Of a stretch of DNA of 36,699 bases, positions 1,916-34,673 are shown piece by piece (the first letter of the stretch is position 1; every line of letters starts with the position of its first letter). The DNA lies in contig CAYWMW010000006.1 in the NCBI GenBank assembly GCA_964458975.1, forward strand, positions 1 through 36,699. The letters run 5' to 3'. The translations under genes were made by a program, and so were the position numbers. The DNA is from an uncultured Lewinella sp. Lineage in GTDB: Bacteria; Bacteroidota; Bacteroidia; Chitinophagales; Saprospiraceae. Under the pieces are notes generated by a model, which worked only from the letters and a program-made list of their open reading frames with translations, searched no databases and was not told the DNA's origin.

Positions 1916-1974
1916 TTGCACCTGCGGCCGCGCCCAAATCCATGCTACTTTTTTGGGCGCGGCCGCAGGTGCAA
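1916..1974. repeat. Perfect 23-bp inverted pair of the dispersed GCACCTGCGGCCGCGCC motif (13-nt loop)
   Basis: TTGCACCTGCGGCCGCGCCCAAA at 1916-1938 and its exact reverse complement at 1952-1974. Confidence 0.95.
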
Positions 1975-2075
1975 AGAAGGTTTTTGAAATTTTGGTATGC
2001 TACGAGACGTTGAGAATAAACCCGCCATTCACTACCTTGCCCTCCCATGCAACTAAGCTCACTCAGTTTACCCAC

Positions 2076-3317
2076 GTGTCCGTACCTTCAGTTAAAACTC
2101 CCCGTCTCCATGCGCTTGATGCCCTGCGCGCCATCATGATGTTGCTTGGTTTGGTTATTCATACGGCTTTGACCTACAACGTGACCAAGCACGGAGATAG
2201 TTGGGGTATATCGCAAACGGTTGATACAAGCGTAGTGACAGATTTTCTGGTTTTGCTGATCCATACTTTCAGGATGCCGACCTTTTTTATGATCGCCGGT
2301 TTTTTTGGCGCGCTTCTTTTCTACGAGCGGGGGGTAGCCTCGATGGTGCGGAACCGTGTTTCCCGAATTCTCTGGCCGTTTATCGTCTTTCTACTTTTAC
2401 TGATGCCGATTAAGGTGTTTTGCTTCCGTTTCACTGAAGCAGTGTATGCAGGCAACGAAAGCCCCTGGTCTTTTGCCCTTACGTATTTCAATCAGCCTGC
2501 GGCATTTTTACCTGATAGTACTTCGCACCTTTGGTTCCTTTACTACCTGATGATGTTTACGCTTGCGGGGGTGGTGCTGGCGTTGCTTTTTGCTAAAGTT
2601 CCCAAGCTAACGGAGCTACTAAACGGTGCCCTCCGGGCTGCTTTTTCTCATCCTGCCCTCAGAATACTGTTTTTTAGTGGCCTGGCTTATGTATTGCTCA
2701 TGCTACTGGATACTTCGATGGTTAACGCTGCCGGTTCATTGACTCCTGAGTTACCTACGTTTTTATGGTTCGGATTCTTTTACGCAGTAGGTTGGGTGCT
2801 TTATTTTTCGAGAGACCTTCTAATGGCTCTTAAGCGTTTTGATTGGTTGTTTACCGTACTTGGGGTTTTGCTGGTTGCCGTTCAAGGGGTTATCATTTTG
2901 GCATCTGACGGAGCATTGTCACCGAGTGCCCCAACCCCAATGATGCTTGGGTTTGCTTCGCTGACGGTCTGGGTGTTCACTTTTGGCATCACTGGTCTTT
3001 TCTTGCGCTATGCAAGTGCGTATTCTCCCGTTATGCGCTATGTCTCGGATGCCTCTTACTGGGTATACCTGATTCATCTGCCCCTCACGGCACTGTTGCC
3101 GGGCTTTATTGCTGGCTGGCAGTTGCCTGCCCTTGTTAAGTTCCTGCTCGTTCTTTTATTTACCACCATCATCTGTTTTGTAACCTACCACTACTTCGTT
3201 CGCAACACCTTCATCGGGCAGTTCCTGAATGGACGTAAGTACGAGCCAGGATTACCGAAAAACCAACCAGTTAGCAGGTATTCCGTCAATTCCGAAGACC
3301 TAGAAAACGCTTTGTAA
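2076..3317 (+). CDS. Acyltransferase-3 family membrane protein, OpgC/MdoC-like
   Basis: Motifs RLHALDALRA, IHTFRMPTFF..AGFF, HLWFLYYL and SYWVYLIHLP, with multiple TM helices. The start was moved from the track's TTG at 1953 (inside the repeat) to the in-frame GTG at 2076. Confidence 0.8.
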   Translation: MSVPSVKTPRLHALDALRAIMMLLGLVIHTALTYNVTKHGDSWGISQTVDTSVVTDFLVLLIHTFRMPTFFMIAGFFGALLFYERGVASMVRNRVSRILWPFIVFLLLLMPIKVFCFRFTEAVYAGNESPWSFALTYFNQPAAFLPDSTSHLWFLYYLMMFTLAGVVLALLFAKVPKLTELLNGALRAAFSHPALRILFFSGLAYVLLMLLDTSMVNAAGSLTPELPTFLWFGFFYAVGWVLYFSRDLLMALKRFDWLFTVLGVLLVAVQGVIILASDGALSPSAPTPMMLGFASLTVWVFTFGITGLFLRYASAYSPVMRYVSDASYWVYLIHLPLTALLPGFIAGWQLPALVKFLLVLLFTTIICFVTYHYFVRNTFIGQFLNGRKYEPGLPKNQPVSRYSVNSEDLENAL

Positions 3318-3344
3318 TATCCCCAGAGCGCAAACAACATCAGC

Positions 3345-4127
3345 ATGACCGATTTAACCGTCACCCTCTTCCAAACCAACATTGCCTGGGAAGACCCGGA
3401 AGCTAACCTGGCACACTACACCGAGCTGATCGCCAGCATTGGCCAGCCGACGGACCTCATCATCTTACCCGAGATGTTTACCACCGGTTTCACCATGAAC
3501 CCGGCCGCTAACGCAGAAACAATGGCTGGCCCGGCGATGCAATGGCTGGCGCAGCAGGCGAAGGTTGCCCAAGCCGTAATCACCGGAAGCCTGGTGATCG
3601 AAGAAGACGGTAAATACTACAACCGCCTGATTTGGATGATGCCGGACGGCAATTATGAAGCGTACAATAAGCGCCACCTTTTCGCCATGGCCGGAGAGCA
3701 CGAATACTACGAGAAAGGAAGGGACCGGCTGATCGTGGAGTACAAAGGCTGGCGGATTTGTCCGCTGATCTGTTACGACCTACGTTTCCCGGTCTGGGCA
3801 AGGAACGAGGATGCTTACGATCTTTTGATCTACACCGCGAATTGGCCGGATAAGCGCGCTTACGACTGGCGCACGTTGCTGAAGGCCCGCGCCATCGAGA
3901 ACCAGTGCTATACCATCGGCGTCAACCGGGTGGGTACGGACGCCAACGGGCTGGGGTACAACGGAGATAGCTGCGTCATTAGCCCAGGATGGCTGAAGAC
4001 CGTTTACCACACCGAGCAGGTGGAGGACGTGCACACGGAACGCTTGTTCGGAGAACATCTGATAGAGGTGCGGCAGCAACTTCCTTTTTTGCAGGACCGG
4101 GATGGGTTCAACTTGTCCTTACAGTAA
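3345..4127 (+). CDS. Carbon-nitrogen hydrolase, omega-amidase YafV-like
   Basis: Nitrilase-superfamily triad E-K-C in LPEMF, YNKRHLF and ICYDLRFP; also ARAIENQCY. Confidence 0.9.
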   Translation: MTDLTVTLFQTNIAWEDPEANLAHYTELIASIGQPTDLIILPEMFTTGFTMNPAANAETMAGPAMQWLAQQAKVAQAVITGSLVIEEDGKYYNRLIWMMPDGNYEAYNKRHLFAMAGEHEYYEKGRDRLIVEYKGWRICPLICYDLRFPVWARNEDAYDLLIYTANWPDKRAYDWRTLLKARAIENQCYTIGVNRVGTDANGLGYNGDSCVISPGWLKTVYHTEQVEDVHTERLFGEHLIEVRQQLPFLQDRDGFNLSLQ

Positions 4128-4243
4128 AGCCTTGAACGGGGGAAAGTCAAAACCTTCCGCGCTTATTTCTAAGCGTAGGGTATTCCGTTAGACGGTGATG
4201 ACACTCACCATTTTTTGAATCCTATCCAGAAGTTGAACTTGCT

Positions 4244-4297
4244 CCCCTCTCCGCCGAGCCGGAGGCGAGGCTTATTGGAGAGGGGCCGGGGGTGAGG
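4244..4297 (-). repeat. REP-like palindromic element (CCCCTCTCC...GGAGAGGGG family), copy 1
   Basis: Hairpin CCCCTCTCC/GGAGAGGGG followed by CCGGGGGTGAGG; a near-identical reverse-complement copy lies at 16070-16122. Confidence 0.85.
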
Positions 4298-5115: not shown

Positions 5116-5151
5116 GAATTACCGTTTTAAAGTTTATCCCAGTAAGATTTG

Positions 5152-6762: not shown

Positions 6763-8889
6763 ATGTCTACCAATCCGCAATTAGAGCTCGCTTTCCAGTA
6801 CATAAGCCAAACCAAACGCCACGTTTACCTTACGGGAAAGGCGGGCACGGGCAAGACCACTTTTTTGCACCGGGTACGGGCTGAAGTGGCTAAGCACATG
6901 GTAGTAGTAGCGCCAACCGGGGTAGCGGCGATTAACGCTAAGGGGCAAACAATTCACAGCCTTTTTCAACTCCCGTTTGGCCTGCTGCGGCCGGGAGATA
7001 CGCGGAGTAAATCCCGTAGGTTCAGCAAGAAGAAAATCCGCCTGATTAGTAGCCTGGACCTACTGGTAATCGATGAGATCAGCATGGTCCGCGCCGACGT
7101 GCTGGATGGCATCGATGAGGTCTTGCGCCGCATCCGCAGAACGGACGAACCCTTTGGCGGGGTCCAACTACTGATGATCGGTGACCTCCACCAGCTACCG
7201 CCCGTAGTGCGCGATGACGAACGACGGGAACTGCTGCGGATGTTCGACACGCCCTACTTCTTTGGCAGCCGCGCGCTGAAAAAGACGGACCTGGCTACTA
7301 TCGAGTTGACCCACATCTACCGCCAGTCTGACGAGCGGTTCATCAACTTGCTGAACAAAGTCCGGCAGGATAATATGACCGAGGAGGTCTTCGCCTCCCT
7401 GAACGAACGCTACCGCCAGGATGCTGACGGTAAGGGTGGCGCCATTACGCTGACCTCACACAACCACGCTGCCAACCGAATCAATACCAATAAGCTGCGC
7501 CAACTGGATACCCCTCAGTTTAGCTTCCGGGCGCAGGTTACCGGCAAGTTCCCCGAGTCGATGTACCCGAACAGTATTGAGTTGAACTTCAAAGTTGGCG
7601 CTCAGGTGATGTTCAACCGTAACGACCCGGACAAGACCTACTTCAACGGAAAGATCGGGACCATCACGGCCATTGAAGAGGAACTCATCACGGTGCGCTG
7701 CCCGGAGGATGACCACGCCCTCCAGATCAGCCCCGTCACCTGGCAAAACATCAGCTATGAAATGGACGCCTCCACTAAAGCGGTCAAGGACAATGTGGTC
7801 GGAGAATACACCCAGCACCCCCTCCGGCTGGCCTGGGCGATCACTATCCACAAAAGCCAGGGCCTGACTTTTGATAAGGTGATCATTGATGCCGCAGATG
7901 CCTTCGCCCACGGCCAGGTGTACGTTGCCCTCAGTAGGTGTAAGACCCTGGAAGGGATTACGCTGCGCAGCCGGATTGGCGAGCAAAGCGTAAGAACGGA
8001 TCGCGTAATCAGCAATTACAGCCAGGAGAACGCAAACAACCAACCTACGGCCGCAGACCTCGCGAACGATAAGCGGATCTTTCAGCTAGACTGTTTACGT
8101 GAGCTATTGAGTTGTAAGGCCTTGCACGAAGCTTCTGCCGCGCTGCAACGGGTGCTCTTCGAACACGAACGCAGCCTGCAAGCCGGGTTTCCGGCAGACT
8201 TTGCCCCGCTGGCCCGGCTGATCGCCGAGAAGGCCGTTCAGCCAGGGCGGAAGTTCCTCCCTCAGCTAAATGCCTGGGGGCATCCGGAGCTTACCGAGGA
8301 GCAAGGTGCTGCGCTGAACGCTCGGCTCGCTGCTGCGGGGAAATACTTCACTGGCCTTTTCACCGATCAAATCTTCCCCGCCGCCCGCGACTTCAGCTTC
8401 CTGACGGAGAACCAGCGGGTACGGGAAGCGGTACAAGAAAAGTTAGAGGACCTACGATTGGCCGTATTCGTGGCAACCAAAACCTTCCCGACCCTCAACG
8501 GAGACTTTGACGGGGCTGCTTACAGCCGGGCCCGGACCTCCGCCCGAATCGAATTTGAAGGGCCGGAGAAGAAGCCCGCAAGGTCCAGGCAGAGCGCCTC
8601 TGTAACCATACCGAGTAGTGTCCAATATCCCGGCTTGTTCAAATTACTTGTTGGTTGGCGACTCAACGAGGCGGAAGAGCGGGAAATACCACCCTACACC
8701 GTAGCGCACAACAGTGTGTTGGCTACGATCGCAACCCTGCTGCCCCAGAGCAAGAAAGAGTTGATGAGCATCAATAAGGTTGGCCCCAAGACCTGGGACA
8801 AATACGGGGAGCTGTTGGTCGGGATGGTGAAAGAGTACCTCCGGGAAAATGAGATTACCCCTCCGGAGCGACTTCAGGTCACTTATTAA
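6763..8889 (+). CDS. Pif1/RecD-like SF1B helicase with C-terminal HRDC domain
   Basis: Motifs GKAGTGKT, VAPTGVAA, IDEISMV, GDLHQLPPV, AITIHKSQGLT and GQVYVALSR; HRDC-like WR..EAEEREIPPYTV..INKVGPKTWDKYG. Likely start is ATG 6763. Confidence 0.9.
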   Translation: MSTNPQLELAFQYISQTKRHVYLTGKAGTGKTTFLHRVRAEVAKHMVVVAPTGVAAINAKGQTIHSLFQLPFGLLRPGDTRSKSRRFSKKKIRLISSLDLLVIDEISMVRADVLDGIDEVLRRIRRTDEPFGGVQLLMIGDLHQLPPVVRDDERRELLRMFDTPYFFGSRALKKTDLATIELTHIYRQSDERFINLLNKVRQDNMTEEVFASLNERYRQDADGKGGAITLTSHNHAANRINTNKLRQLDTPQFSFRAQVTGKFPESMYPNSIELNFKVGAQVMFNRNDPDKTYFNGKIGTITAIEEELITVRCPEDDHALQISPVTWQNISYEMDASTKAVKDNVVGEYTQHPLRLAWAITIHKSQGLTFDKVIIDAADAFAHGQVYVALSRCKTLEGITLRSRIGEQSVRTDRVISNYSQENANNQPTAADLANDKRIFQLDCLRELLSCKALHEASAALQRVLFEHERSLQAGFPADFAPLARLIAEKAVQPGRKFLPQLNAWGHPELTEEQGAALNARLAAAGKYFTGLFTDQIFPAARDFSFLTENQRVREAVQEKLEDLRLAVFVATKTFPTLNGDFDGAAYSRARTSARIEFEGPEKKPARSRQSASVTIPSSVQYPGLFKLLVGWRLNEAEEREIPPYTVAHNSVLATIATLLPQSKKELMSINKVGPKTWDKYGELLVGMVKEYLRENEITPPERLQVTY

Positions 8890-11800
8890 AAAACCGAAAA
8901 ACCGGCACATCCACACTAAACGTGAGCATGGCCCGCGTACTCCGCGCTTCGCGCATTCTGGTTTCTCCGGCGAGGGTGAACTTGCGCACACTGGGCCCGT
9001 CCTGAACACCGAAGCCAAGGGTGAAGGGAGACTTGGGGAAGTTGTACATCAGGTGGATGCCGGGCGCGATCACGTTTGCGGGTCGGAACTGCGGCAGCCG
9101 GTCTACCGTAGCCCCATCCCCATCATTGTTCCTGCTTTCGAGCCTGAAGGCCGTTAAAGCACCCAGGTCGAGCAGGGAACCGAAGAGGGTGAGTGATTTA
9201 TTGCCACCGATGTTGCGGCTGTAGCTGAAGCCTACGGGAACGAACAGCGCCGCCCCGAACACTTCTTCTTCCAACTCTGGAGCGGAGACACCGGGCGGAA
9301 GCACCAGCCGTTCCTGGCTCAGCGCTGCACCGAAGTAAGCGCCCAGTTCAAGGCTGGAAGGCTTACTTCGTTTGATCTGGGAACTTCCTACGGGCAAGGC
9401 AATGGAAGAGATTGCCGCTTCAAAATCTCCGGAGCTATTGGCGTTGGCAACGTCGGCCATAAAGGTGCCGTAGCGGAAGAGCTTTTCCCGGAAACGGTCT
9501 GTCCGCTCAGGGTTAAGCTTTTTAATTTTACCCTGCACCCGCTGTAGTTCCTCCTGGATACGGCGAATCTTCAGGTCCCGGATACCGTTGCGCGCATCTT
9601 CCCGTGCGTAATCATCAATACCGGGGGTGTTGAGCTCTGTTTGGTAACGGGAAAGTAGAATCTTGTCGCGGTCGTTGCCCAAAAGCGGCAAAGCATCGGC
9701 GGTAGGCACGGCCAGGCCTACGGCCTTCAGGTCTTCATCCTGGTCGACAACGTAACTTTCGATCAGTTGGCGGAGCTCATCCCGCCGCTCCGTCAGTTTT
9801 CTCTCCTTGCGGCTGGCCGTTGGGGCAACGTTGAAAATCTTAAGCAGGCTCAATAAGTTGTCTACGGCGTACCGGTACTCCCCGGTTTGGCTCAGGCGGA
9901 ACAACTCGTTGAGCTGGCGGCTGACCTCCGGTACGTCGGTGAAGGCGGGGTACTTCCCGGCAAGGCTGATCGGTTTGCCTTCCTCCTGCCTCGGGTTCAG
10001 AATCGGAGCTTCGAGTAAGGACTGGAGGGTCTGGCTAATGAAGTTCACCGCCTGAATGCGGCGAACGGCCCTGGGGCCCGCCTTCTGTAGGGCGGTGTCA
10101 TAATAACCGGACTTGAAATCGGAGAGAAAGAGCCCAAAATCAAGCAAGAAATTGGTAACTCCGGCAGACGAGAACTCTCCCTCAAACTCAGCTACGCGGC
10201 CAAGGCGCTCAATGCCTATTCCCGTCAATAGCTTCCGGGCGGCGGGCTTTGTCTGAAAATTGGCGAGTTGGCTGTTCTCAACGAAAAGCCCACCTTGCCC
10301 ACCATCAGAGAGCAGGAAAAATACCTGCTGCGCCATCCCAAAAACGGTCTCGAAAGTAGAGAGGTTGTGGTAAGCCCGGATAAGGGTATCGGCCTGGCTG
10401 GCGCTGTAGGTTTCTACTGCCGCGAGCAGGTCGTCATAAGCCGTTTTTGTGTCCGAGATGGCAAGTTGTAAAGGTGGGAAATAAGCGGCTTGCCGTGGGT
10501 TTAGCTTCATCTTCGCCGCGTAGGGCGAGTTGGAATCACCGATTTTTTTGACCCACTCTTGCAGGCGGGTTTCCACGGCCTTTAGGCGCTCAGCGGCCGC
10601 TTTTGTTCCGGCGGGAATTTCGTCGGTCAGGCGGCGGAGCATCCGGAGGGCCGGGGCATCGCGGTTGGCCAGTTCGGCCTCGATGTCGTTTTGTAATTCT
10701 TGTTTCCGGTCGGCAAAAGTTTTCGCTTTGCGTTTTTGGGCATCGCGCTTTTGCTGGAGATCAAGTTGAATTTCTACCAACTCCTCCCGGGCTTTGAATA
10801 AGTCCGTCAGGAGGGTTTGGTAACCGTCTACATTGTCGCGGTGGGCCAGCACTTCCCGAACGGCGGTGAGGCCGGCGGCGCGCAGTTCGTCTGGTTTCAA
10901 ACGCTTCGCGTTTGGGCCAAACAAGTCGTCGTACCGGGCCACGCTGGGGTAAGCCTCGTAGTAGTTGTACGGTTCGTGGCCCAGCAGCCAGGCGCGGATG
11001 ATGCCGGTGGCGGGTGGGTCGGAGCCAATCTCCCAGTAGTTGTTTTTCAGGGCCAATTTGGCGTCGTTGACCGGCGTGTAAACGTCCCGGATTTTTTTCA
11101 TGACTGGCATCAGGGCTTCCTGACCGAGGTTAGCTTTTTGAATGTCGGTCAGTAGTGGGTCAAACTGCTGGCTGCTCAGCCGTTCGCGGGCGAGTTGGAA
11201 GCGCGCGTTCAGGGTATCGGTGGAAAGCATCAGGTTATCGAAGGCGTTGAGAATAGCCCGGTAGCCGACGTTGGTCGTGTCCACCTTAGTCATGCGCAAA
11301 TCAATGCGGCAGCGGGTGTCAATGCGGGTGCGCTCCAGTTCTCCGTAGGTAAACGAGAGGATGTCCGCCAGGGAAACTTCGCGCATTTCCAGGTCCAGGA
11401 TGCGGTAAATAAGGAACACATTGTACACTACGGGGTCGCGGAAGGTGCCCGCGTCGCGTTTGTCCAGGAAGTTGCCGAGGTTGAAGGCGATGGCGTTCAG
11501 GTCTTCCACAAACGCTTTCCGGATACTGGGCAGGATGGCCTTATAATTCAGCAGGTCCAGCGTGGGTAAGAACTCACTGGTGTTGGGGAAAAGGTGGTTC
11601 AGGTCGTTCCGGTTGATGTCTTCCCGCAGCTTAGTGAGGAAGGTGTAGGTGAGTTCTTCCTGCGCCCGGCGGCTGATCCAGTCAGACAGGCCAGCCAGGG
11701 CGGTGCCCACCAAATTGGAGGTAGACAGGCCCGATGGTTTGGTGTTCGCTCCGGCGGCGGCGGCCTTCAGGCTCAGGTCCGTAGCGGGTGGCGCGGCGAA

Positions 11801-12247
11801 GGTCTCGTGGATTTTGCCGAGGTCAATAATTCCGTTGCGGCTGAACAGTTCCGCCCCGCTCAGCTGCTGGAGAAAATCCGCCCGCCCAGGAGAGGCGATC
11901 ATCGTGGGGATGGATAGACCTGCTGGTGGTAGGTAGCTTTCGAGGAGCAAATCGAGCTTCTCGTCCAGTAAAAAGCCCCTGATCGCTGGGTTTTTCGCGT
12001 AATGGCGCAGCAGTTCCGGGCCGGAAAGGAGGGCATCGATCTTGTCCTGATCGGGCATCCCCCCGTAATACGCCAACGTCATCACGATGGTATCCAGCGA
12101 GGGGTTACCGCTGGGCGTACCAATTTTACGGGCATTTTCGGTATGGCGCACAATGCGGTTCAGGTCCGCTCCGATATTTTGGGCGCTGACGCAGGTGCAG
12201 TGTAGAAGGACAATGAGCAGTGGAAGAAATACAGCAAGCTTTTTCAT
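8879..12247 (-). CDS. Large hypothetical exported protein (about 1122 aa): signal peptide, long helical body, beta-rich C-terminus
   Basis: Long uninterrupted ORF. MKKLAVFLPLLIVLLHCTCVSAQ signal peptide from ATG 12247. The C-terminus shows alternating beta-strand patterns ending FSVDVPVFRFFNK. Confidence 0.8.
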   Translation of the reverse strand: MKKLAVFLPLLIVLLHCTCVSAQNIGADLNRIVRHTENARKIGTPSGNPSLDTIVMTLAYYGGMPDQDKIDALLSGPELLRHYAKNPAIRGFLLDEKLDLLLESYLPPAGLSIPTMIASPGRADFLQQLSGAELFSRNGIIDLGKIHETFAAPPATDLSLKAAAAGANTKPSGLSTSNLVGTALAGLSDWISRRAQEELTYTFLTKLREDINRNDLNHLFPNTSEFLPTLDLLNYKAILPSIRKAFVEDLNAIAFNLGNFLDKRDAGTFRDPVVYNVFLIYRILDLEMREVSLADILSFTYGELERTRIDTRCRIDLRMTKVDTTNVGYRAILNAFDNLMLSTDTLNARFQLARERLSSQQFDPLLTDIQKANLGQEALMPVMKKIRDVYTPVNDAKLALKNNYWEIGSDPPATGIIRAWLLGHEPYNYYEAYPSVARYDDLFGPNAKRLKPDELRAAGLTAVREVLAHRDNVDGYQTLLTDLFKAREELVEIQLDLQQKRDAQKRKAKTFADRKQELQNDIEAELANRDAPALRMLRRLTDEIPAGTKAAAERLKAVETRLQEWVKKIGDSNSPYAAKMKLNPRQAAYFPPLQLAISDTKTAYDDLLAAVETYSASQADTLIRAYHNLSTFETVFGMAQQVFFLLSDGGQGGLFVENSQLANFQTKPAARKLLTGIGIERLGRVAEFEGEFSSAGVTNFLLDFGLFLSDFKSGYYDTALQKAGPRAVRRIQAVNFISQTLQSLLEAPILNPRQEEGKPISLAGKYPAFTDVPEVSRQLNELFRLSQTGEYRYAVDNLLSLLKIFNVAPTASRKERKLTERRDELRQLIESYVVDQDEDLKAVGLAVPTADALPLLGNDRDKILLSRYQTELNTPGIDDYAREDARNGIRDLKIRRIQEELQRVQGKIKKLNPERTDRFREKLFRYGTFMADVANANSSGDFEAAISSIALPVGSSQIKRSKPSSLELGAYFGAALSQERLVLPPGVSAPELEEEVFGAALFVPVGFSYSRNIGGNKSLTLFGSLLDLGALTAFRLESRNNDGDGATVDRLPQFRPANVIAPGIHLMYNFPKSPFTLGFGVQDGPSVRKFTLAGETRMREARSTRAMLTFSVDVPVFRFFNK
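12177..12199 (-). repeat. Variant copy of the dispersed motif (TGCACCTGCGTCAGCGCCCAAAA), encoding CTCVSAQ
   Basis: Differs from the consensus at 2 central positions and lies at the predicted signal-peptidase cleavage site. Confidence 0.75.
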
Positions 12248-12370: not shown

Positions 12371-12538
12371 CTTAGGAACGCGAATAGAATAAAACACGAT
12401 TTTCTGACCTGGCGTTTTTGTTCCTGCCGTTGTCAAAAATCCTTTGCATAGCCCCCGTTACGGAAATGATTTTTGGCGGCGGCAGGGGCAAAATAAGTCG
12501 GTCAGAAATCGTGTTTTATTTTGTTCGCGTTCCTTAAG
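12371..12538 (+). repeat. Long imperfect inverted repeat (about 80-bp arms, 8-nt loop); structured RNA or MITE-like
   Basis: CTTAGGAACGCGAATAGAATAAAACACGATTT... pairs with ...AAATCGTGTTTTATTTTGTTCGCGTTCCTTAAG; many mismatches are G-T pairs on the + strand. Confidence 0.85.
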
Positions 12539-17137: not shown

Positions 17138-17164
17138 TTTGGGCGCTGAACGCGGGTGCAAAGG
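17138..17164 (-). repeat. Degenerate copy of the dispersed motif (CCTTTGCACCCGCGTTCAGCGCCCAAA)
   Basis: Resembles the 12177-12199 variant with one substitution and one extra base; it overlaps a possible -7 promoter element. Confidence 0.5.
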
Positions 17165-17178
17165 TCGTCTTTTAGGGG

Positions 17179-17268
17179 CAAAGAGATCACAGAGATCGCA
17201 TAGGGCACAAAGATCACAAAGAGCACAGAGATCACAAAGATCACAGAGGGCACAAAGATCACATAGAA
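17179..17268 (+). repeat. 9-bp tandem repeat, 10 degenerate units (consensus CACARAGAT)
   Basis: caaagagat-cacagagat-cgcataggg-cacaaagat-cacaaagag-cacagagat-cacaaagat-cacagaggg-cacaaagat-cacatagaa. Confidence 0.9.
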
Positions 17269-17313
17269 CATAGCATCGCGACCGCTAAAGTGCCCTGTAA
17301 GGGTACGTCTCTT

Positions 17314-17420
17314 AGCGATGGGTTGATTGAGCCGCAGGCGAGATCAGCCCTTCGCGCTGCGAGGGCATGTCATTTCAGCGATGGGTTGATTGAGCCGCAG
17401 GCGAGATCAGCCCTTCGCGC
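17314..17420 (+). repeat. Two identical 44-bp hairpin-forming direct repeats separated by 19 bp (REP-like)
   Basis: AGCGATGGGTTGATTGAGCCGCAGGCGAGATCAGCCCTTCGCGC at 17314-17357 and 17377-17420. Confidence 0.92.
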
Positions 17421-17526: not shown

Positions 17527-17547
17527 GCACCTGCGGCCGCGCCCAAA
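17527..17547 (+). repeat. Dispersed motif copy (intergenic)
   Basis: GCACCTGCGGCCGCGCCCAAA preceded by AAAACCTTTCTTC; lies 14 bp beyond the stop codon of the EEP gene. Confidence 0.95.
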
Positions 17548-19852: not shown

Positions 19853-20021
19853 CTAGTGGGTGAGTTCATAATTACTTGGCCGTTATTCCTTGTCTTTTCG
19901 CACCGTGACTTCGTTGCTGAAATCCTCATTTAGCTACGGCTAGACTCCGGTTTCAGCGCCTTGCCACGGCACGAAAATCCGGCGGACTAAACGACCAGAT
20001 AATTATGAACTCACCCACTAG
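19853..20021. mobile_element. 169-bp MITE-like element with 22-bp perfect terminal inverted repeats
   Basis: CTAGTGGGTGAGTTCATAATTA (19853-19874) / TAATTATGAACTCACCCACTAG (20000-20021). CTAG (containing TA) lies at both ends, the interior is also self-complementary, and there is no ORF. Confidence 0.75.
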
Positions 20022-23543: not shown

Positions 23544-25181
23544 TTATTGTTTTTTAGGATGAACGAAAGTGGTCGTGAAGGTCTCCAGTTGTTCGTCTTC
23601 GGTCCAGACTTCTATTTCGAGTTTGCCGTCAAAGCCGGGTGGGGGGGCTGTTGGCAGGTCGATGAAGAGTGCTCCTTCGTTTACCTCGCCGGGCTCCGCC
23701 ATGGGAGATTCGCCGACGAAGCGTACCGCTGCGCCGGGCATGTCTGCTACCTCGAAACGCAGCTCCAGATCGCGGCCTGTTTTGTTGATGACCTGGTAGG
23801 TGTACAGGTTGTTGATGGTGCCATCAGCGTTTTCCTGGTACAGGGTGCCGGGGGTGCGGAGCATGATCACGTCCAGGCCATCCCGCCCGCCAAGGAGGAA
23901 GATGTTCAGGGCGATGAGGGCAATTAATACACCGGAGTAGGCAATTACTCTTGGCGTCCATATTCTGCGTTCCTGGCGGGCAACGCCCGCTTCACTGTCG
24001 TAGCGGATCAGCCCTCGGGGGCGGTCAATTTTGTCCATCACCGCATCGCAGGCATCGATGCAGGCCGTGCAGTTGATGCACTCCATCTGGATGCCGTTGC
24101 GGATGTCGATGCCGGTTGGGCAAACCTGCACGCAGAGGGTGCAGTCGATGCAGTCCCCTTTAAGTTTGGGCTCGGAAGTGGCCATGCTTAGCGTCCCGGT
24201 TTCCGTAAAGGATATTGGGGGCGCGGCCGCAGGTGCAGGGGAGGTTTTTGAAACGGCGCTTACCGCTTTAGGGGAAGTCGCGGGCGTTTTCTGCGGCGCA
24301 AGCCCATCTTTTGCAAGCGCGGCCTCCAGGCGGTGCAGCATCTGGTCTCCGCAGGTATCTTTACCGTCGCGGCAGTTTTCGCAGTCCGTACAGCTGCTTT
24401 TCTTGGGTTTGCCTTTACGGATTTTACCCCGGGGCTCTCCCCGTTCGTAGTCGTAGATTACGTTGATGCTGTCGTCGTCAAGGAGTACGCCCTGCAAACG
24501 GCCGTAGGGGCAGATAGCAATACAGACCTGTTCGCGCATATTGGCGAAGACGAAGTAGAATATCCCGATGAAAACCACAATGGCCAGAAAGCCGAACGGG
24601 GCACTCACCGGAGACTGGCTCACGGTCGCAAGCACCGCATCCGTACCAATAATATAGGCTAAGAAAGTGTGGGCAATGATGCCTGAGACCAATAAAAAGA
24701 GCGCATGCTTCGCTACCTTTTTCTTGATTTTATCTTTGGTCCAGGCAGCTTTGGCGAGCTTGCGCTGTGCGTTGGCATCGCCCTCAATCCAGTACTCGAT
24801 CTTACGGAAAACCATCTCCATAAAGATGGTCTGGGGGCAAACCCAGCCGCAAAACAGCCGCCCGAAGACTACCGTAAACAGGGCAATGAAAACCACCCCC
24901 GTAATCATCAAAATGGCAAAGAGGTGAAAATCCTGCGGGGTGAACGACAAACCGAAAAGAATGAACTTCCGCTCCAGTACGTTCAGCAAGATAATCGGCT
25001 CTCCGCCTACCCTGATCCAGGGGAGGCCAAACAAAACAAGCAATAGGGCATAGCTGAGGTAGCTCCGCCACTGGTAAAAGCGACCGTCCGGTTTCTTCGG
25101 GAATACCCACTTCCGCTTGCCATCGGCGTCGACGGTGCCGATGGTGTCCCGAAAGCTATCCTTATTGACTGTTTTACTCAT
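23544..25181 (-). CDS. ccoG: cbb3 oxidase accessory polyferredoxin CcoG/FixG (with an internal insertion)
   Basis: Motifs GRLFCGWVCPQT, CIAICPYG, CIDCTLCVQVCP and CINCTACIDAC. Confidence 0.95.
   Translation of the reverse strand: MSKTVNKDSFRDTIGTVDADGKRKWVFPKKPDGRFYQWRSYLSYALLLVLFGLPWIRVGGEPIILLNVLERKFILFGLSFTPQDFHLFAILMITGVVFIALFTVVFGRLFCGWVCPQTIFMEMVFRKIEYWIEGDANAQRKLAKAAWTKDKIKKKVAKHALFLLVSGIIAHTFLAYIIGTDAVLATVSQSPVSAPFGFLAIVVFIGIFYFVFANMREQVCIAICPYGRLQGVLLDDDSINVIYDYERGEPRGKIRKGKPKKSSCTDCENCRDGKDTCGDQMLHRLEAALAKDGLAPQKTPATSPKAVSAVSKTSPAPAAAPPISFTETGTLSMATSEPKLKGDCIDCTLCVQVCPTGIDIRNGIQMECINCTACIDACDAVMDKIDRPRGLIRYDSEAGVARQERRIWTPRVIAYSGVLIALIALNIFLLGGRDGLDVIMLRTPGTLYQENADGTINNLYTYQVINKTGRDLELRFEVADMPGAAVRFVGESPMAEPGEVNEGALFIDLPTAPPPGFDGKLEIEVWTEDEQLETFTTTFVHPKKQ
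24219..24253 (-). repeat. Dispersed motif copy inside ccoG (encodes SKTSPAPAAAP)
   Basis: Minus strand TTTCAAAAACCTCCCCTGCACCTGCGGCCGCGCCC; shares the TTTCAAAAACCT flank with the intergenic copy at 1952-1989. Confidence 0.95.
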
Positions 25182-26074
25182 TACTTTTTACTTAAGTCTG
25201 CTGCTTCGTACACTTCACCCTGGGGCTCTTTAGCGTCGGCGGGGTTGGTGCCAGCCAGGCTGATGATGTAACTGGCTACTGCCTGCATATCCTTAGGGCG
25301 CAGTTCGTTCTTCCAGGCAATCATTCCCTTTTCGGGGATACCGTACTTGATGGACTTGAAGACGTCTGAAATACTGCCGCCGTGCAGCCAGTACTTATCC
25401 GTGAGGTTAGGGCCAATACCGCCTTCACCCTGCGTGCCGTGGCATACTGCACACTTGGCGGTGAACATAGCCTGGCCTTTACCCAGCGCATCAGCATCAG
25501 CTAGTAGCTCGACGTTGGATTCGTCGATCGCGTTTTTCTGCGTAGCGAGGTAGGCTTTTACCTGGTCTTCAGCAATTTCCATTTCGTAGGCGTAGGCCTC
25601 GTGCTGCAAACTACCGTAGTCGGAGAAGTGGACAAACCAAATGTAAACCGGCGCAAAGGCCATGGACAGGTACAGGATGCCTTTCCACCAAGGGGGGAGG
25701 TTGTTGTCCAGTTCCATAATACCGTCGTAGTCGTGGTCCAGCAGAATGTCTTCCTCCTCTTCAATCGGCACATCATCGGTAAGGCGGTCGTAGAGGGTCT
25801 GCCACCAGGGAGTGGTAGCGGCGGCCGGTACCGGTACGCCTACTTTTTCAAGTACTTCAGGGTGGTACTTCTCCAGCATCCGGAGGCGTTGCATCCGCAT
25901 GAAGGTGAAGCTCAGGTTAATGATCGCCCCCATCCCCGCTGCGAAGACCAGTAACATAAGACCGAGCAAAAGCTGCTCCATCGGAGACATGCCGGAGAGT
26001 AAGTTTACGCTAGATGACTCAGTTGCCGGAGCGACAGTTTGTAAAAGCAGTGGTTTATAGCTTAGTAAGTTCAC
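25181..26074 (-). CDS. ccoP: cbb3-type cytochrome c oxidase subunit III
   Basis: HDYDGIMELDNNLPPWW, a single heme c motif CAVCH, GPNLTD and KGMIAW. Confidence 0.95.
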   Translation of the reverse strand: MNLLSYKPLLLQTVAPATESSSVNLLSGMSPMEQLLLGLMLLVFAAGMGAIINLSFTFMRMQRLRMLEKYHPEVLEKVGVPVPAAATTPWWQTLYDRLTDDVPIEEEEDILLDHDYDGIMELDNNLPPWWKGILYLSMAFAPVYIWFVHFSDYGSLQHEAYAYEMEIAEDQVKAYLATQKNAIDESNVELLADADALGKGQAMFTAKCAVCHGTQGEGGIGPNLTDKYWLHGGSISDVFKSIKYGIPEKGMIAWKNELRPKDMQAVASYIISLAGTNPADAKEPQGEVYEAADLSKK

Positions 26075-26259
26075 TGGTTGTCTTTTTTATCGTTAGAGGA
26101 ATAGCTGTCACGCAGAGGCTGTTGTTCTACCTCAGCATAGGACCCGCGTCCGCGCCCGAAAACCATAACGAGTACAATGCTGAAAATGAAGAAGAACGTA
26201 AGGAGGGCCATAATGGCGAGCCAGTTGATGTCAGAGCCGGCGAGAAGATATTTTGCCAT
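26071..26259 (-). CDS. ccoQ: cbb3-type cytochrome c oxidase small subunit
   Basis: 62 aa with a single TM helix followed by ..QQPL.D; lies between ccoNO and ccoP. Confidence 0.75.
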   Translation of the reverse strand: MAKYLLAGSDINWLAIMALLTFFFIFSIVLVMVFGRGRGSYAEVEQQPLRDSYSSNDKKDNQ

Positions 26260-28806: not shown

Positions 28807-31221
28807 TTACCCCCTCCGCCAAACCACCCCCGCCCCCAAAGAAGCCACCACCACAATCGTGACCGAACTAAGCGGCATCAGAATTGCGGCAACAACCGGG
28901 CTAAGGGCGCCGGTCATGGCGTAAGACAAACCGACCACATTGTAGGCAAAAGCCAGCAGGTAGGTAAGGGTAATCACCCATTTCATTCCCTTTGCTGCAC
29001 GGAGTACGGAGGGCAGCCTGGTGAGCTTATCCGCCTTCACGATGCCGTCGCAGGCGGGGTTGAAGCGGGCTTCGTCTTCGTTGACGGCCAGGCCGACCGT
29101 TGCGGCGGCCAGTGCGCCGGCGTCGTTCAGGCCGTCTCCGACCATGAGAATATTAGCCCCCGCTTCTTGTAGCTGGGCGATGTGTTGTCTTTTGTCGAAG
29201 GGGCTCTGCCGGAAACGGGCCTGATCTCCGGGGAAGTACTGCTCCCAGACGTTGTCCTTGGGGGCATGATCGCCGGATAATAGCCAGGTGGCTCCCCGGC
29301 TGTTCACCTCGTTGAGCATGGCTCCGCCGCCATCACGAATAACCGTTTGCTGGGGCTGGAGCCGGAACTGAAGCAATCCGTCAACCGCAGCAAAGGTGCC
29401 CGAGGTGTAGTTCGGGAAGCCGCAAAAAGTCGGACTACCGATCATGAACGCACGCCCCTGATGTTCCAGGCGGAGGCCAGCCCCCGTTATTTCCTCGACT
29501 TCGCCGATCCGGACGCTCATGGCGTTAGCAGCGTCGGCACTCAGTGCTCGCACAATCTCCTGACTGCGGGGGTGGGTAGACTGGCGGGCCATCGCAACAA
29601 ACACCGCCTCGAAGAAGGGAGAACGGGGCGGGACGTAAGAGAGTTGGTCGGTATTACCTTCTTCCGTTAACGTCCCCGTTTTATCAAAGACGAAGGTGTC
29701 TACCGTGCCTAATCGTTCAACGACCGCAGGCCCTCTGAAGTAGAATCCGTCACGGGCCAGCAACCGTTGGATGGTGCCGTAGGCAAAGGGAGCCGCCAGG
29801 GCCAGGGCGCAGGGGCAGGCGATGATGAGCACGGCCGTTGCTGCCCGGTAAGCCCGGGCGGTATCCACCTGGTACCAGTACGCAAGCGTTCCGGCGGCAA
29901 GGAGGAGAATGGTAGCCGTGAAGGCCCGGATCAGCCATTCGGGCGGGGCAACTTCGGCGGTTTTCTGGTTTTCTCCTTCCCGCAGCCACAGCTGGAGGAG
30001 GTAACTCTGGTCGGTAGGCTTGGTGACCAGGATGCGAAGGGCGGAACTCGTCGCCCGGCCGCCAGCAAATACTTCCTGGCCTTCGTGTACCGCAGCGGGC
30101 TCCGCCTCTCCGGTAACGAAGCTGTAGTCGATGCCGTGGGCGGCGGGGCTGAGCAAGGTTCCGTCGGCCGGAATCAGTTGTCCGGGGCGGATGAGCAGGG
30201 TGTCTCCCGCCTCCACGTCTTCGCTGGCGATGGGCTCGGGCGCGCCCTGTTCGTCTTCGCGGTAGGCGGCAACGGGGAAGTAGTCCCGATAATCCCGGTC
30301 AAAATTGAGGCGGGCAAAACTGTACGTCTGGAACCAACGCCCGATAAGCAAAAAGAAGACAAGGCCAGCTAAACTATCGAGGTAGCCCGAGCCCACGCCC
30401 GAAAATATCTCGTACAAAGACCGGCCAAAAAGCGCCAGCATACCGAGGGCAATCGGGAGGTCAATCGTAACGCGGCGCGCCCGCAAAGCATAGAGGGCGG
30501 ACGTGAAAAAGCTCTTCCCGGCGTAGAACATCACCGGTAAGCTCAAGAGCAATAAAAAGCCGTTCATGGCTACTTTAACCCACCCTGCACCTGCGGCCGC
30601 GCCCGCTAAAAGCTCCGACAGGCCGAAATACTCCGGGAAGCTCATCAACATGATGTTGCCAAAGCAAAAACCCGCCACGCCGATGCGGTAAATCAGGGCG
30701 CGGTTGGTACTTTTATCCGCAGTGGCATCCCCCTGCGCACGAAAGTGCGGCGGGTAACCGATGCGGTCCAGCATTTCCGTGACCTGGCGCAGATCGGTGA
30801 CGTTCGGATCGTAAACGATGGTGGCCAGTTTGCGGGCAAAATCAACGGTACAAGACCGAACGCCCGGCAGTAATTGCGGAAGCCGCTCCAGCAGCCAAAG
30901 GCAGGAGGAGCAATGGATGCCGGGCAATTCAAGCTCTACGTGGCAGCGCGTTTCGTCGCGGTAGCGCACGAAACGATCGGCGAGTTTGGGTACGTCCAGC
31001 CAGGCGTAATCAGTATTGTCCGCTTTGTCTTGCCGGGCCCCCGCGCGGTCATCGATCCGATAAAAATCTAGGAGGTTGTTTTCCTGTAAAATCGTGAAAA
31101 CCGTCGCGCAGCCTGAGCAGCAGAACGACTTCCCGTCTTGCACGATGGTCTCCGCAGCACAGGGCTCTCCGCAGTGCTTACAGGTGGTTTTGGTTAGCGA
31201 TGAGGTGGGGTCTTGGCCCAT
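28807..31221 (-). CDS. ccoI: Cu-transporting P1B-type ATPase CcoI/FixI
   Basis: N-terminal CKHCG..CCSGC, HMA motif IHCSSC, VTGE, ACPCAL, DKTGT, GDGLND and YN...MP.SS. Confidence 0.93.
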   Translation of the reverse strand: MGQDPTSSLTKTTCKHCGEPCAAETIVQDGKSFCCSGCATVFTILQENNLLDFYRIDDRAGARQDKADNTDYAWLDVPKLADRFVRYRDETRCHVELELPGIHCSSCLWLLERLPQLLPGVRSCTVDFARKLATIVYDPNVTDLRQVTEMLDRIGYPPHFRAQGDATADKSTNRALIYRIGVAGFCFGNIMLMSFPEYFGLSELLAGAAAGAGWVKVAMNGFLLLLSLPVMFYAGKSFFTSALYALRARRVTIDLPIALGMLALFGRSLYEIFSGVGSGYLDSLAGLVFFLLIGRWFQTYSFARLNFDRDYRDYFPVAAYREDEQGAPEPIASEDVEAGDTLLIRPGQLIPADGTLLSPAAHGIDYSFVTGEAEPAAVHEGQEVFAGGRATSSALRILVTKPTDQSYLLQLWLREGENQKTAEVAPPEWLIRAFTATILLLAAGTLAYWYQVDTARAYRAATAVLIIACPCALALAAPFAYGTIQRLLARDGFYFRGPAVVERLGTVDTFVFDKTGTLTEEGNTDQLSYVPPRSPFFEAVFVAMARQSTHPRSQEIVRALSADAANAMSVRIGEVEEITGAGLRLEHQGRAFMIGSPTFCGFPNYTSGTFAAVDGLLQFRLQPQQTVIRDGGGAMLNEVNSRGATWLLSGDHAPKDNVWEQYFPGDQARFRQSPFDKRQHIAQLQEAGANILMVGDGLNDAGALAAATVGLAVNEDEARFNPACDGIVKADKLTRLPSVLRAAKGMKWVITLTYLLAFAYNVVGLSYAMTGALSPVVAAILMPLSSVTIVVVASLGAGVVWRRG
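30586..30604 (+). repeat. Dispersed motif copy inside ccoI (read antisense as GAAAGA)
   Basis: TGCACCTGCGGCCGCGCCC, in the loop between the first two TM helices. Confidence 0.95.
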
Positions 31222-31294: not shown

Positions 31295-32644
31295 TTAAAT
31301 AGCCTGGCTAAAGGTTTTCGTAACCGGCTGCCGCGCCCAGTAGTGGTCGTCCAGCGGCAGGCAGATATTGCGCAGAAACGGCTTGCCGACTTCGGTGACG
31401 TCGATGCGGTAGGGCGAGCGGGCGATGATGCCGTCGGTGGCCATGTCGTTCCACTGTTCAACGGCGCGGCCCAGGGCTTCGCAGCGCAGCGTTTCGGCGC
31501 GCCATTCGGTGTGGCCTTTGCACATCAGGTTCAGGATGTGGCGGCGCACGACCTGGTCATCTTCGTTCAGACGGTGCCCTTTGATGATGGGCAGCCGCTT
31601 GTCTTCGAGGATCGCTTTGGCGTAGGTTTCTACCTTTTTTTCGTTTTGTACGTAGGTGTCCCAGCTGTCTCCGATGGCGGAGCAGCCGAGCGCGAGGGTT
31701 ATCGGCGTATTGGCCGTGGTGTAGCCCATGAAATTGCGGTGAAGGTCGCCGGAGGAGGCCGCGCGGGCCAGATCGTCTTCCGGTAAGGAGAAGTGGTCCA
31801 GGCCGATGTCTTTGTAGCCGCTGTCTTCGAGCAGGTCGCGGCCGGTGGCGTAGAGTTGCCATTTGTCGCGGCCTTTGGGCAGGTCGGTTTCGTCGTAAGC
31901 GCGCTGGCCGGGGCTAACCCAGGGTACGTGCGCGTAGCCGTAAAAGGCGATGCGTTCGGGGCGCAGCTCCTGGATTTTTACGGCGGTGCGGATGATGTCG
32001 TTCTCGGTTTGCCGGGGCAGGCCGTAAATGACATCGAAATTGATGGATTGGTACCCGGCGGCGCGGGCGGCGTCTACCGTACGCTCTACTTCCTCCACCG
32101 TTTGTTTGCGGTTGATCAGGCGCATGATCTCAGGGTTAAAGTCCTGCACGCCGATGCTGATGCGGTTGAAACCCCGCGCAGCCAGTGCCTTGAGGTGCTC
32201 AGGTGTGGTGCTGTTGGGGTGGGCCTCGAAACCGAAGTTGTGGTCTTCGGCTACGTCGGCATCTTTCAGGATGCCGTCAATGAGGCGACCGAGTTCGGCG
32301 GGGGAGAAAAAGGTGGGCGTTCCGCCGCCGAGGTGAAGTTCTTTCAGGCGCGGCCGCAGGTGCAATGATCGGACGTAGATGGCCCACTCCGCCAGCACCG
32401 CATCGATGTAGGGAGCTTCGACGTCGTGCCGCTTGGTGATCCGTTTGTTGCAGCCGCAGTAAGTACAAAGCTCTTCGCAGAAGGGGAGGTGGATGTACAG
32501 GCTAATGTCCCGTGTTTCTGCTAAACGTGTATTCAGACTACCCAGCCATTGGTGTTGGGCGGGGGCTTGCACGTTCCAATAAGGAACGGTCGGGTAACTC
32601 GTATAACGAGGAACGGGTTTGTTGTATTTTTTGATTAACGGCAC
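31295..32644 (-). CDS. hemN: Oxygen-independent coproporphyrinogen III oxidase (radical SAM)
   Basis: Motifs PRYTSYPT, YIHLPFCEELCTYCGC (CxxxCxxC), HLGGGTP, GVQD, IGLDHF and LHRNFMGYT; GTG start. Confidence 0.95.
   Translation of the reverse strand: MPLIKKYNKPVPRYTSYPTVPYWNVQAPAQHQWLGSLNTRLAETRDISLYIHLPFCEELCTYCGCNKRITKRHDVEAPYIDAVLAEWAIYVRSLHLRPRLKELHLGGGTPTFFSPAELGRLIDGILKDADVAEDHNFGFEAHPNSTTPEHLKALAARGFNRISIGVQDFNPEIMRLINRKQTVEEVERTVDAARAAGYQSINFDVIYGLPRQTENDIIRTAVKIQELRPERIAFYGYAHVPWVSPGQRAYDETDLPKGRDKWQLYATGRDLLEDSGYKDIGLDHFSLPEDDLARAASSGDLHRNFMGYTTANTPITLALGCSAIGDSWDTYVQNEKKVETYAKAILEDKRLPIIKGHRLNEDDQVVRRHILNLMCKGHTEWRAETLRCEALGRAVEQWNDMATDGIIARSPYRIDVTEVGKPFLRNICLPLDDHYWARQPVTKTFSQAI
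32347..32365 (-). repeat. Dispersed motif copy inside hemN (encodes LHLRPR)
   Basis: Minus strand TTGCACCTGCGGCCGCGCC, a few codons before HLGGGTP. Confidence 0.95.
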
Positions 32645-34020: not shown

Positions 34021-34107
34021 GCTGGAACGGCGATGGTCTCTCAAATGAATCCTGATTGGTGTGAGTGAGTGCTCTTCGCTGGCTTGATACGGTGAGTTGG
34101 GGGAACG

Positions 34108-34539
34108 TTGCTTCTTGTTTTAAAATTTTATCCCGCTAGTGGCCGTTCTGACCAACAAGGAGCATATACTTTTACCGATGACGCGGTACTGCCAAACACA
34201 ACCTACTACTACCGTCTTCGCCAGGTAGACTTCGACGGAACTGAATCGTATTCCGATATTATCTTCGGAGCCATTAATGATGAGGGTTTTGGGTTAAGTG
34301 CATTCGTACCTAACCCGGCTGAAGCTGTTACCCAGCTTACCGTTCACCTGAAAAAAGATGCCAGTACGTCCGTCACCCTCTTCGACGCAACGGGGCGCCA
34401 GGTATTCCGGCAGGAACAACGCCTCCAGGCTGGAAACAACCCCATCGAGATTAACGTGGAGCACCTGCCAACAGGCAGCTACACCGCCCGTGTGAGAACC
34501 GCTTCCAGGGTGCTCACCCGTAAACTGATTGTGCGTTAA
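34108..34539 (+). pseudogene. Orphan C-terminal fragment of a T9SS (Por) substrate: Ig-like strand plus type A CTD
   Basis: YTFTD..YYYRLRQVDFDG..YS followed by the CTD (PNPA..LFDATGR..LPTGSY..TRKLIVR). No ATG or signal peptide; the domain begins part-way through. Confidence 0.65.
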
Positions 34540-34580
34540 AAACGCCAACCCTTCGAAAAAACTATTTTTTAGGGGGAGCG

Positions 34581-34626
34581 AAACAGGAGTCATCCGGCAA
34601 GTTCGGGATGACTCCTGTTTTTTGTT
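34581..34626 (+). terminator. Rho-independent terminator, probably bidirectional
   Basis: Stem AAACAGGAGTCATCC/GGATGACTCCTGTTT with a 10-nt loop and a T tract; lies between convergent ORFs. Confidence 0.85.
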
Positions 34627-34652
34627 GTACAAGCCCTGCAACAAAAACTTCC

Positions 34653-34673
34653 TTTGCACCTGCGGCCGCGCCC
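34653..34673 (+). repeat. Dispersed motif copy (intergenic)
   Basis: TTTGCACCTGCGGCCGCGCCC preceded by CAAAAACTTCC. Confidence 0.95.

Follow-up and report, generated by a model that had tools for sequence, protein, structure and literature searches.

A 17-bp word that recurs between and within the genes of a 36,699-nt stretch of DNA from an uncultured Lewinella sp. (the window, meaning the whole stretch that was analysed; contig CAYWMW010000006.1 of assembly GCA_964458975.1) belongs to a motif with about 1,500 chromosomal copies, which form two independent, evenly spaced and unpolarised lattices, one on each DNA strand. Covariation within the motif predicts a single-strand mini-hairpin. We tentatively favour, with a probability of roughly 40%, the reading that the lattice is an unpolarised, direction-sensitive Chi-like signal for the AddAB helicase-nuclease of the genus. 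To judge from sequence similarity, the genus of the host and of the 47 genomes used for comparison is most likely Neolewinella (the nearest named CcoG relative among the loci listed is that of Neolewinella aurantiaca, with 81% identity, and the named AddA homologs come from Neolewinella or Lewinella). The descriptive findings reported below are firm, whereas the mechanism is not.

Abundance and coding context of the motif

The original prediction, made from the window alone, had listed seven exact copies of the 17-mer, and our search reproduced the positions and strands of all seven; in total the window holds nine matches with up to three mismatches, compared with 0.22 expected from shuffles. 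The host assembly (G000, in which the window is contig C6; 4.70 Mb in 495 contigs, 88.6% complete, 54.5% GC) contains 451 exact copies (233 on the plus and 218 on the minus strand) and 1,052 copies with at most two mismatches. An iterated 39-position profile (34 bits) identified 1,475 sites scoring at least 14 bits, against 7 in the reversed genome. On the basis of gene calls from our own simple hexamer model (82% coding), 818 of these sites are intergenic, which is an excess, and 657 (45%) are coding, 335 of them in sense and 322 in antisense orientation. The longest site-free stretches measure 10–16 kb; among them are the ribosomal-protein operon and low-GC clusters that were likely acquired.

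Within coding DNA, 148 exact 17-mers were found compared with 0–2 in ten synonymous-codon shuffles, so the word is over-represented in the codon-preserving comparison that had been proposed for it. The accompanying proposal that the conserved entity is DNA and not peptide also held, as the word is read in several frames and the shuffles rule out a peptide-driven origin. Frame usage is nevertheless biased: the frames giving APAAAP, GAAAGA, ARPQV and CTCGRA are used, whereas the one giving RGRRC is hardly ever seen. The first 40 codons hold all 19 exact copies read as CTCGRA, and the first 45 residues hold 52 of 54 peptides of the type CTCx[RLPS]A, an N-terminal location indicating that the DNA word has rewritten signal peptides. 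The recurrent signal-peptide ending L-C-T-C-x-R/S-A-Q, exemplified in the window at 12182–12198, is thus a by-product of the DNA motif. Two regulatory roles were tried and rejected: for a promoter, TAnnTTTG is upstream of only 3 of the 1,052 copies and distances to start codons are broad; for a terminator, there are only about 10–16 face-to-face pairs in the genome. Units of CTAGTTC and ACTCCCG also form abundant short tandem repeats throughout the genome.

Two independent strand lattices

Sites on the same strand avoid each other. Adjacent sites were on opposite strands in 781 cases and on the same strand in 231, and, measured against a null model that keeps the coding or intergenic class of every site, only 16 same-strand neighbours were closer than 1 kb (136 ± 10 expected) and 56 closer than 2 kb (239 expected). 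The roughly 740 sites on each strand are evenly distributed, with a mean per-strand spacing of 5.5–6.3 kb; the coefficient of variation (CV) of the spacing is 0.57 (mean 5.5 kb), compared with 0.92 ± 0.03 under the null model. Weak sites likewise avoid same-strand sites. No comparable exclusion was observed for opposite-strand pairs: back-to-back pairs are enriched at 50–300 bp, and face-to-face pairs are mildly depleted at 150–2,000 bp, with 16 lying less than 50 bp apart. Deletion between direct repeats was rejected as the cause of the repulsion, since copies in close same-strand pairs resemble each other as much as those in distant pairs. A search for recombination between copies gave no evidence of it, as candidate joints with sides of 20–36 bases derive from other motif copies.

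The same arrangement was seen in other genomes of the genus. Same-strand neighbours made up 27 of 130 adjacent pairs in 400 kb of G030, with minimum same-strand gaps of 1.6–2.3 kb, 22 of 96 among the 97 sites listed for G022 (CV 0.56 and 0.40 on the two strands) and 30 of 94 among the 95 sites listed for G017 (CV 0.44 and 0.58). In all seven genus samples the same-strand counts were below those of shuffles, several of the counts being small.

The lattices have no direction relative to replication or transcription. On inferred leading strands of the host genome, 443 sites faced one way and 408 the other (p = 0.24), despite a detectable replication skew (rho = 0.30), and on a 5.19-Mb contig of G023 the 100 sites listed of 107 were divided into 43 plus and 57 minus, the best split reaching 58% (p = 0.64). 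A weak contig strand bias relative to raw GC skew (rho = 0.19, p = 0.014) was lost when a codon-corrected skew was used (p = 0.24). Transcription polarity was equally absent (335 sense and 322 antisense sites). What had been described for the window, namely copies on both strands with occasional inverted pairs, applies to the whole genome and goes together with the absence of replichore polarity.

Known dispersed signals did not show this pattern. Control loci for uptake signal sequences (USS; 346 sites, found in 47 of 56 IMG/VR loci after de-duplication) and DNA uptake sequences (DUS; 203 sites in 17 of 68), which are prophage-derived and not whole chromosomes, displayed no same-strand repulsion (ratios 0.96–1.14), and in 300 kb of E. 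coli the Chi sites proved to be polarised (63 against 10) and random in their spacing (CV 1.04). The data call for a reader that sees each strand separately, needs one site per several kilobases on each strand, draws no benefit from a second site nearby and takes no account of the direction in which replication or transcription proceeds.

A predicted single-strand mini-hairpin

Read 5' to 3', the consensus consists of a soft WAACCYYCYY flank, the foot TGCACCT, then GCG, four variable bases, CGC, CC and an A-rich tail; about 15% of the sites carry the foot variant TGCATCCT. Its general form is a foot TGCA(T)CCN, a stem GC(N), a loop of four (sometimes five to six) bases, (N')GC, CC and an A-rich tail. 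The edges of the profile are soft and there is no target duplication. A NotI palindrome, pointed out in the original prediction, is present in the 17-mer but is incidental, since its inner bases are free to vary; conservation lies instead in the offset GCG-N4-CGC stem.

When the anchor was placed on the left half only, positions 9 and 14 formed G-C in 806 cases, T-A in 31, A-T in 8 and C-G in 7, with no mismatch class exceeding 7. The non-GC pairs occur in all contexts (19 sense, 14 antisense, 20 intergenic), and copies carrying them are spaced like the others (for 3 out of 31, another site lies within 2 kb on the same strand). Longer loops of five (n = 49) and six bases (n = 42) exist. Behind the foot of G065, stems and loops differ greatly in sequence yet retain pairing. 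Loops in the clade of G066 conform to GNRA and are closed by a G-T pair on the C-rich strand, which suggests that this is the folding strand. The folding energy of a single copy is no better than that of shuffles (z about 0), and the hairpin is claimed because of covariation, not energy. The motif is accordingly predicted to fold, within one strand, into a mini-hairpin that follows a conserved 5' foot and whose stem is probably marginal and stabilised by protein. Its equal use in sense and antisense argues for a reader of single-stranded DNA and not for an RNA process. Left halves followed by a stem of at least 3 bp had a same-strand site within 2 kb in a fraction of 0.12–0.22, compared with 0.53–0.56 for left halves without stem and a background of 0.54, a comparison that is partly circular in that the stem-3 class consists mostly of the profile's own sites.

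Distribution, dialects and origin of copies

A degenerate version of the main pattern is present in 226–1,374 copies in 33 of the 47 genus genomes, while among 396 other genomes of the family 17 match a similar pattern, none with more than three copies. The remaining genus genomes have not lost the motif; they carry other dialects. A clade-specific dialect was recognised in 44 of the 47 genomes (G021, G026 and G070 have none assigned), in agreement with the earlier suggestion of a lineage-specific signal. Besides the dialect of the window, these comprise about 1,250 copies of the GCACCYGCGRCAGCGC type in G022 (control 96), CCYGCGCTVCGYCGC in G001, G020, G010 and G027 (462, 214, 140 and 335 copies, respectively), KGCTACTTYG-N1-2-AG in G017 (1,429 copies), ACCDGCGVRAGT in G009, G066, G067 and G034 (686–1,248 copies) and, in the sampled DNA of G065, a GCTCCYGC-hairpin form. 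The dialects track the clades of a ComEC tree, a quick, midpoint-rooted one used only for grouping them.

Between the host and G030, at 77% nucleotide identity, 35 of 38 alignable sites were kept; for another 94, intergenic or diverged, no alignment was possible. In comparisons with orthologs from other clades, 45 of 71 sites aligned without a gap and 14 showed a gap of at least four residues (control 2.5%); local identity at the sites was 0.34 compared with 0.59, and 15 further sites fell outside the alignments. These alignments indicate that in-gene copies have probably arisen mostly by substitution, at variable codons.

The motif extends to phage DNA. A 44.6-kb temperate phage contig from IMG/VR (with integrase, terminase, head protease and tape measure genes) has eight copies in the 30 kb fetched, three on the plus and five on the minus strand, with a same-strand spacing never below 3.4 kb. 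In G023, six copies were also counted in the 40 kb read of a 43.5-kb contig (C7, L363–L364) that bears a gene cluster for a contractile injection system.

Outside the family, in an unrelated lineage, two Cytophagales genomes (G467 and G468; L043 and L057) contain 1,505 and 1,650 copies of WHCCTCCCGC in strand balance (controls 5 and 9). The octamer concerned, CCTCCCGC, occurs about 1,500–1,650 times per genome, is evenly spaced per strand and occupies positions shared by the two species; neighbouring copies were on opposite strands in 52 cases and on the same strand in 17 (33 ± 4 in shuffles), and no hairpin is evident. Its complement, GCGGGAGG, matches the Chi variant GCTGGAGG at seven of eight positions. 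Two further words were observed in short samples. In 60 kb of G180 (C1:2000001-2060000, L705–L707), CTTTCGC(C/A)AA occurs 11 times on both strands, mostly after G, its complement then holding GCGAAAGC; it is possibly a further dialect elsewhere in the family. In 20 kb of a Saprospiraceae metagenome-assembled genome (L004), ATCCGCTTCG occurs five times exactly on both strands, and its complement contains GAAGCGG, an S. aureus Chi-like word.

Candidate reader proteins

For an AddA/RecB-like helicase, and likewise for an AddB-like protein encoded elsewhere in the genome, strong orthologs were found in 45 of the 47 genus genomes. A PF12705 search of the host genome returned only Cas4, and AddB was recovered via an ortholog; a PDB sequence search with this protein gave no match, while its structural model (pLDDT 87) matches the fold of B. 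subtilis AddB (E = 7e-23, 13% identity). The two host genes (C168:1900-5142 and C32:6765-9596) are unlinked and divergent, unlike the pair of other Bacteroidota orders tested, and a second UvrD-PD(D/E)XK protein of about 1,050 aa is encoded on C396.

ComEC was found in 44 and DprA in 43 of the 47 genomes. comEC was not found in the host assembly, which is 88% complete and in which the gene that follows comEC in relatives sits at a contig end, probably the reason for its absence. The host carries a ComEA-like protein with multiple helix-hairpin-helix motifs, ComM, and intact PriA and DnaG; its DnaB (C28:256-2283) contains an intein. A regular-expression test for the prepilin motif in our own gene calls of this assembly gave no hit. 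The DNA-uptake/DNA-utilisation lipoprotein DUF5689, described as part of the outer-membrane step of Riemerella transformation (PMC8459023, PMC12478041), was found in nine basal genomes and not in the other 38 of 47, a crown group that includes the host and every genome with the dialect of the window.

RAYT-like genes are present in 46 of the 47 genomes. Among four in the host, three have no site within 1.5 kb and one has a single site 1.4 kb away, and all are accompanied by other repeats. At least six Y1/RAYT-like genes of two size classes lie on host contigs C35, C115, C96, C64, C46 and C360, the four examined having repeat arrays of their own. Relaxases of the MOB-P (PF03432) and DUF5712 types were absent from all five genomes searched.

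A proposed Chi-like signal for AddAB and its alternatives

Under the Chi-like reading, AddAB would travel along one strand from a DNA end and read the foot, and the hairpin just 3' of the foot would act as a cap that protects the strand from being degraded any further in the 3'-5' direction, so that a tail would be left for RecA. At a two-ended break, or on a linear fragment entering the cell, a correctly oriented site would be needed on each side; given this need, and given that a second nearby site would add nothing, two independent even lattices are what such a process would produce. The site would stay in the recombining tail, so that recombination could also drive the spread of the motif. 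The pattern fits end-processing because a helicase-nuclease needs one orientation on each side. The spacing of 5.5–6.3 kb is near the roughly 5 kb reported for E. coli Chi (PMC8022716) and below the mean processivity of 14 kb reported for B. fragilis AddAB, whose Chi is described as unknown (PMC2887965). With Chi the motif would share direction-sensitive reading of a single strand, and it does share a frequency of about one per 5 kb and presence in temperate phages; a cognate, here divergent, AddAB pair exists, and the related Cytophagales octamer differs from GCTGGAGG at one of eight positions. Among the functions first suggested for the word, a recombination signal remains the best one, now read as a single-strand hairpin, whereas a classical uptake signal was not supported.

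Several observations weigh against AddAB as the reader. AddAB is a candidate only, and it is near-universal, so that its presence discriminates nothing. The putative capping step would rely on the nuclease resistance of DNA mini-hairpins. Known Chi sites are unstructured words of 5–8 nt, whereas the motif has 17–20 specified bases and a co-varying hairpin; E. coli Chi is polarised and randomly spaced, whereas the motif is evenly spaced, lacks co-orientation with replication and does not stem from codon use. A short self-sufficient word is not what is found here, since 305 lone copies of the Chi-like octamer GCAGGTGC escape the repulsion and, like stem-less left halves, behave as background. 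The same type of AddA occurs in 120 of 200 family genomes, yet six of seven AddA-bearing ones sampled showed no clear candidate motif of this kind and only G180 showed a candidate dispersed word, the 40–60 kb sampled from each being too little DNA to detect a 5–7-mer. At least six dialects in one genus amount to a faster change than has been reported for Chi. Two reports bear on the contrast with E. coli: a preprint attributes the abundance of its Chi largely to codon usage (10.1101/2021.07.08.451572), an origin that may explain why Chi lacks the spacing signature, and unpolarised candidate Chi motifs have been reported for Vibrio (PMC8022716).

A serious though less probable alternative is a transformation signal acting on single strands, in which ComEC, DprA or a partner would recognise the site and the strand imported through ComEC would be both retained and recombined only when it bears one. 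Because entry of the two strands would be random, molecular drive would build one even lattice per strand. A hairpin directly suits single-stranded incoming DNA, and this explanation accommodates hairpin and dialects better than the AddAB reading does. The clade dialects resemble those of DUS (compare PMC3630211), substitution is at poorly conserved codons (compare PMC2817400), and the intergenic excess, the gaps over likely acquired islands and the ribosomal-protein operon, and the ComEC, DprA, ComEA-like and ComM proteins all agree with it. Riemerella, a related member of the Bacteroidota, is described as transformable with a preference for self DNA; in the same report, uptake words were sought in Riemerella and Flavobacterium, and the top k-mers given are A-rich (PMC7965970). 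On the other side, control searches found ComEC and DprA to be widespread in bacteria of all kinds, comEC was not found in the host assembly (probably for the reason given above), and none of the nine basal genomes with DUF5689 has the dialect of the window.

It is improbable that the motif is a priming or replication-restart site on a single-stranded template, of the pas/ssi kind and read by PriA or DnaG. The phiX174 pas is likewise a single-strand hairpin that signals to a directional machine, PriA (PMC5778457), a maximum-gap need per template strand would yield even spacing, both proteins are intact and phage carries sites. Use on the lagging strand, however, predicts a polarity that is absent in spite of the detectable skew, gaps of 11–16 kb are tolerated, pas/ssi sites are few per replicon and located on mobile elements whereas the motif is chromosomal and abundant, and chromosomal restart is described as sequence-independent (PMC5778457).

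A classical DUS or USS, that is a double-stranded word bound at the cell surface, is quite unlikely. The resemblance is considerable: there are about 1,000–1,500 copies, which are non-palindromic and lie on both strands; within genes they are biased in frame and mostly made by substitution at variable codons; and they are in excess between genes, form some inverted pairs, differ in dialect from clade to clade and have soft A/T-rich flanks, in line with the population-genetic traits reported for DUS and USS (PMC1939737, PMC2817400, PMC3630211, 10.1101/2025.10.24.684340). The uptake reading put forward in the original prediction is nonetheless disfavoured by the strand-dependent spacing, where a double-stranded signal would be expected to ignore orientation and the control loci lack same-strand repulsion, by the covariation, which implies base pairing within one strand, and by the failure to find either a prepilin motif or, in the 38 genomes of the main clade, the DUF5689 lipoprotein.

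Dispersed nick sites of an HUH relaxase-like enzyme, releasing single-stranded segments between same-strand sites, have only a slim chance of being correct: a nick-to-nick unit would account for independent lattices, and the GCATCCTG variant (about 15% of sites) resembles the IncP nick consensus YATCCTG, but the two relaxase families were not found in the five genomes searched and the Y1 HUH genes are flanked by other repeats. We give about the same small weight to some process not yet recognised. Least credible is a selfish micro-element of the REP, Rickettsia palindromic element or MITE kind inserting into genes and spacers, and the idea of a gene-invading micro-repeat did not hold up: although REP/REPIN elements with their RAYT (Y1 HUH) genes and Rickettsia palindromic elements also have a short 5' foot before a single-strand hairpin, are species-specific and form some inverted pairs, and although RAYT-like genes are nearly ubiquitous and 14 of 71 comparisons show a gap, the motif has a stem of only 3 bp, lies to 45% in genes, mostly by gap-free substitution (45 of 71), is evenly spaced without clustering, lacks sharp edges and target duplication, is kept at 35 of 38 sites in G030 and does not closely flank the four host RAYT-like genes, which have different repeats.

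Copies and other features in the window

The first two exact copies, 1918–1934 on the plus strand (extended element about 1905–1938) and 1956–1972 on the minus strand (about 1952–1985), form a face-to-face inverted pair (fold −38 kcal/mol, z −10); the second copy lies upstream of the acyltransferase domain of an open reading frame (ORF; 1953–3317) whose true start is probably later. Further exact copies are intergenic at 17527–17543 and 34656–34672, both on the plus strand, or lie within genes: at 24220–24236 (minus strand) in CcoG, sense frame APAAAP, within a loop that is shorter in other clades; at 30587–30603 (plus strand), antisense in the P-type ATPase CcoI (GAAAGA); and at 32347–32363 (minus strand) in HemN (LHLRPR), where orthologs align without gaps and the copy has arisen by substitution. 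Two variants suspected earlier were real: a two-mismatch copy with the loop TCAG at 12182–12198 (minus strand), which encodes the CTCVSAQ that ends the signal peptide in a 1,122-aa protein (8879–12247), and a copy with a five-base loop (GCG-TTCAG-CGC) at 17138–17164 (minus strand). The frames of the four in-gene copies were also as first described. The window search added a variant with three mismatches at 26140–26156 (plus strand), antisense in a small ORF (26071–26259) between ccoN/O and ccoP; the same place is occupied in at least eight related genomes.

Other repeats are present in the window. At 17169–17276 and 17314–17420, a 9-bp tandem array adjoins two identical 44-bp copies which resemble the repeats flanking a RAYT-like gene on contig C115, and intergenic inverted repeats were found at 12374–12534, 19853–20021 and 4244–4291/16075–16122. 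The element at 19853–20021 appears at high depth in metagenome runs, indicating a multicopy REP/MITE-like family distinct from the 17-mer motif. At least nine clustered strain differences in these runs lie beside the HemN copy (32180–32318), with too few data for a link to recombination. DNA of the window was present in seawater metagenome runs, all from one study, and no RNA datasets containing it were listed; a search of the window against Rfam RNA families gave no match at the gathering threshold.

Novelty and significance

To our knowledge, abundant sequence-specific marks for recombination or uptake are established for only two families, DUS and USS, besides a handful of Chi sites. No description of the motif was found in the openly licensed literature, and older or subscription repeat surveys could bear on its novelty. 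The motif fails a tested defining feature of DUS/USS, of Chi and of REP/RAYT alike. It shares with the cyanobacterial HIP1 its hyper-abundance, the lack of an explanation and the occurrence in genes and spacers, but HIP1 is described as a perfect 8-bp palindrome and hence strandless, whereas the motif is strand-specific. The Chi equivalent of Bacteroidota AddAB is reported as unknown (PMC2887965), and computational Chi searches are described as requiring polarity (PMC8022716), for which reason they would miss this motif.

It is possible, if doubtful, that Bacteroidota use a new class of chromosomal signal, consisting of two independent, even and unpolarised single-strand lattices whose reader would be something other than a pilus receptor or a classical Chi pocket; were the reader neither AddAB nor the transformation machinery, the signal would be categorically new. 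Even spacing per strand is a new statistical signature that can be scanned for across genomes and has already found a second case in another order. The motif offers a precise, testable substrate (foot, hairpin, orientation rule and compensatory mutants), with a series of dialects in culturable species, and it explains a recurrent signal-peptide motif as the by-product of a DNA signal. If the new class is real, it would occur in at least two orders, as a hairpin in Neolewinella and as an octamer in Cytophagales, its clade-wise change in sequence could act as a barrier between species, and it would have rewritten some of the proteome, the CTCxRAQ signal peptides being an example.

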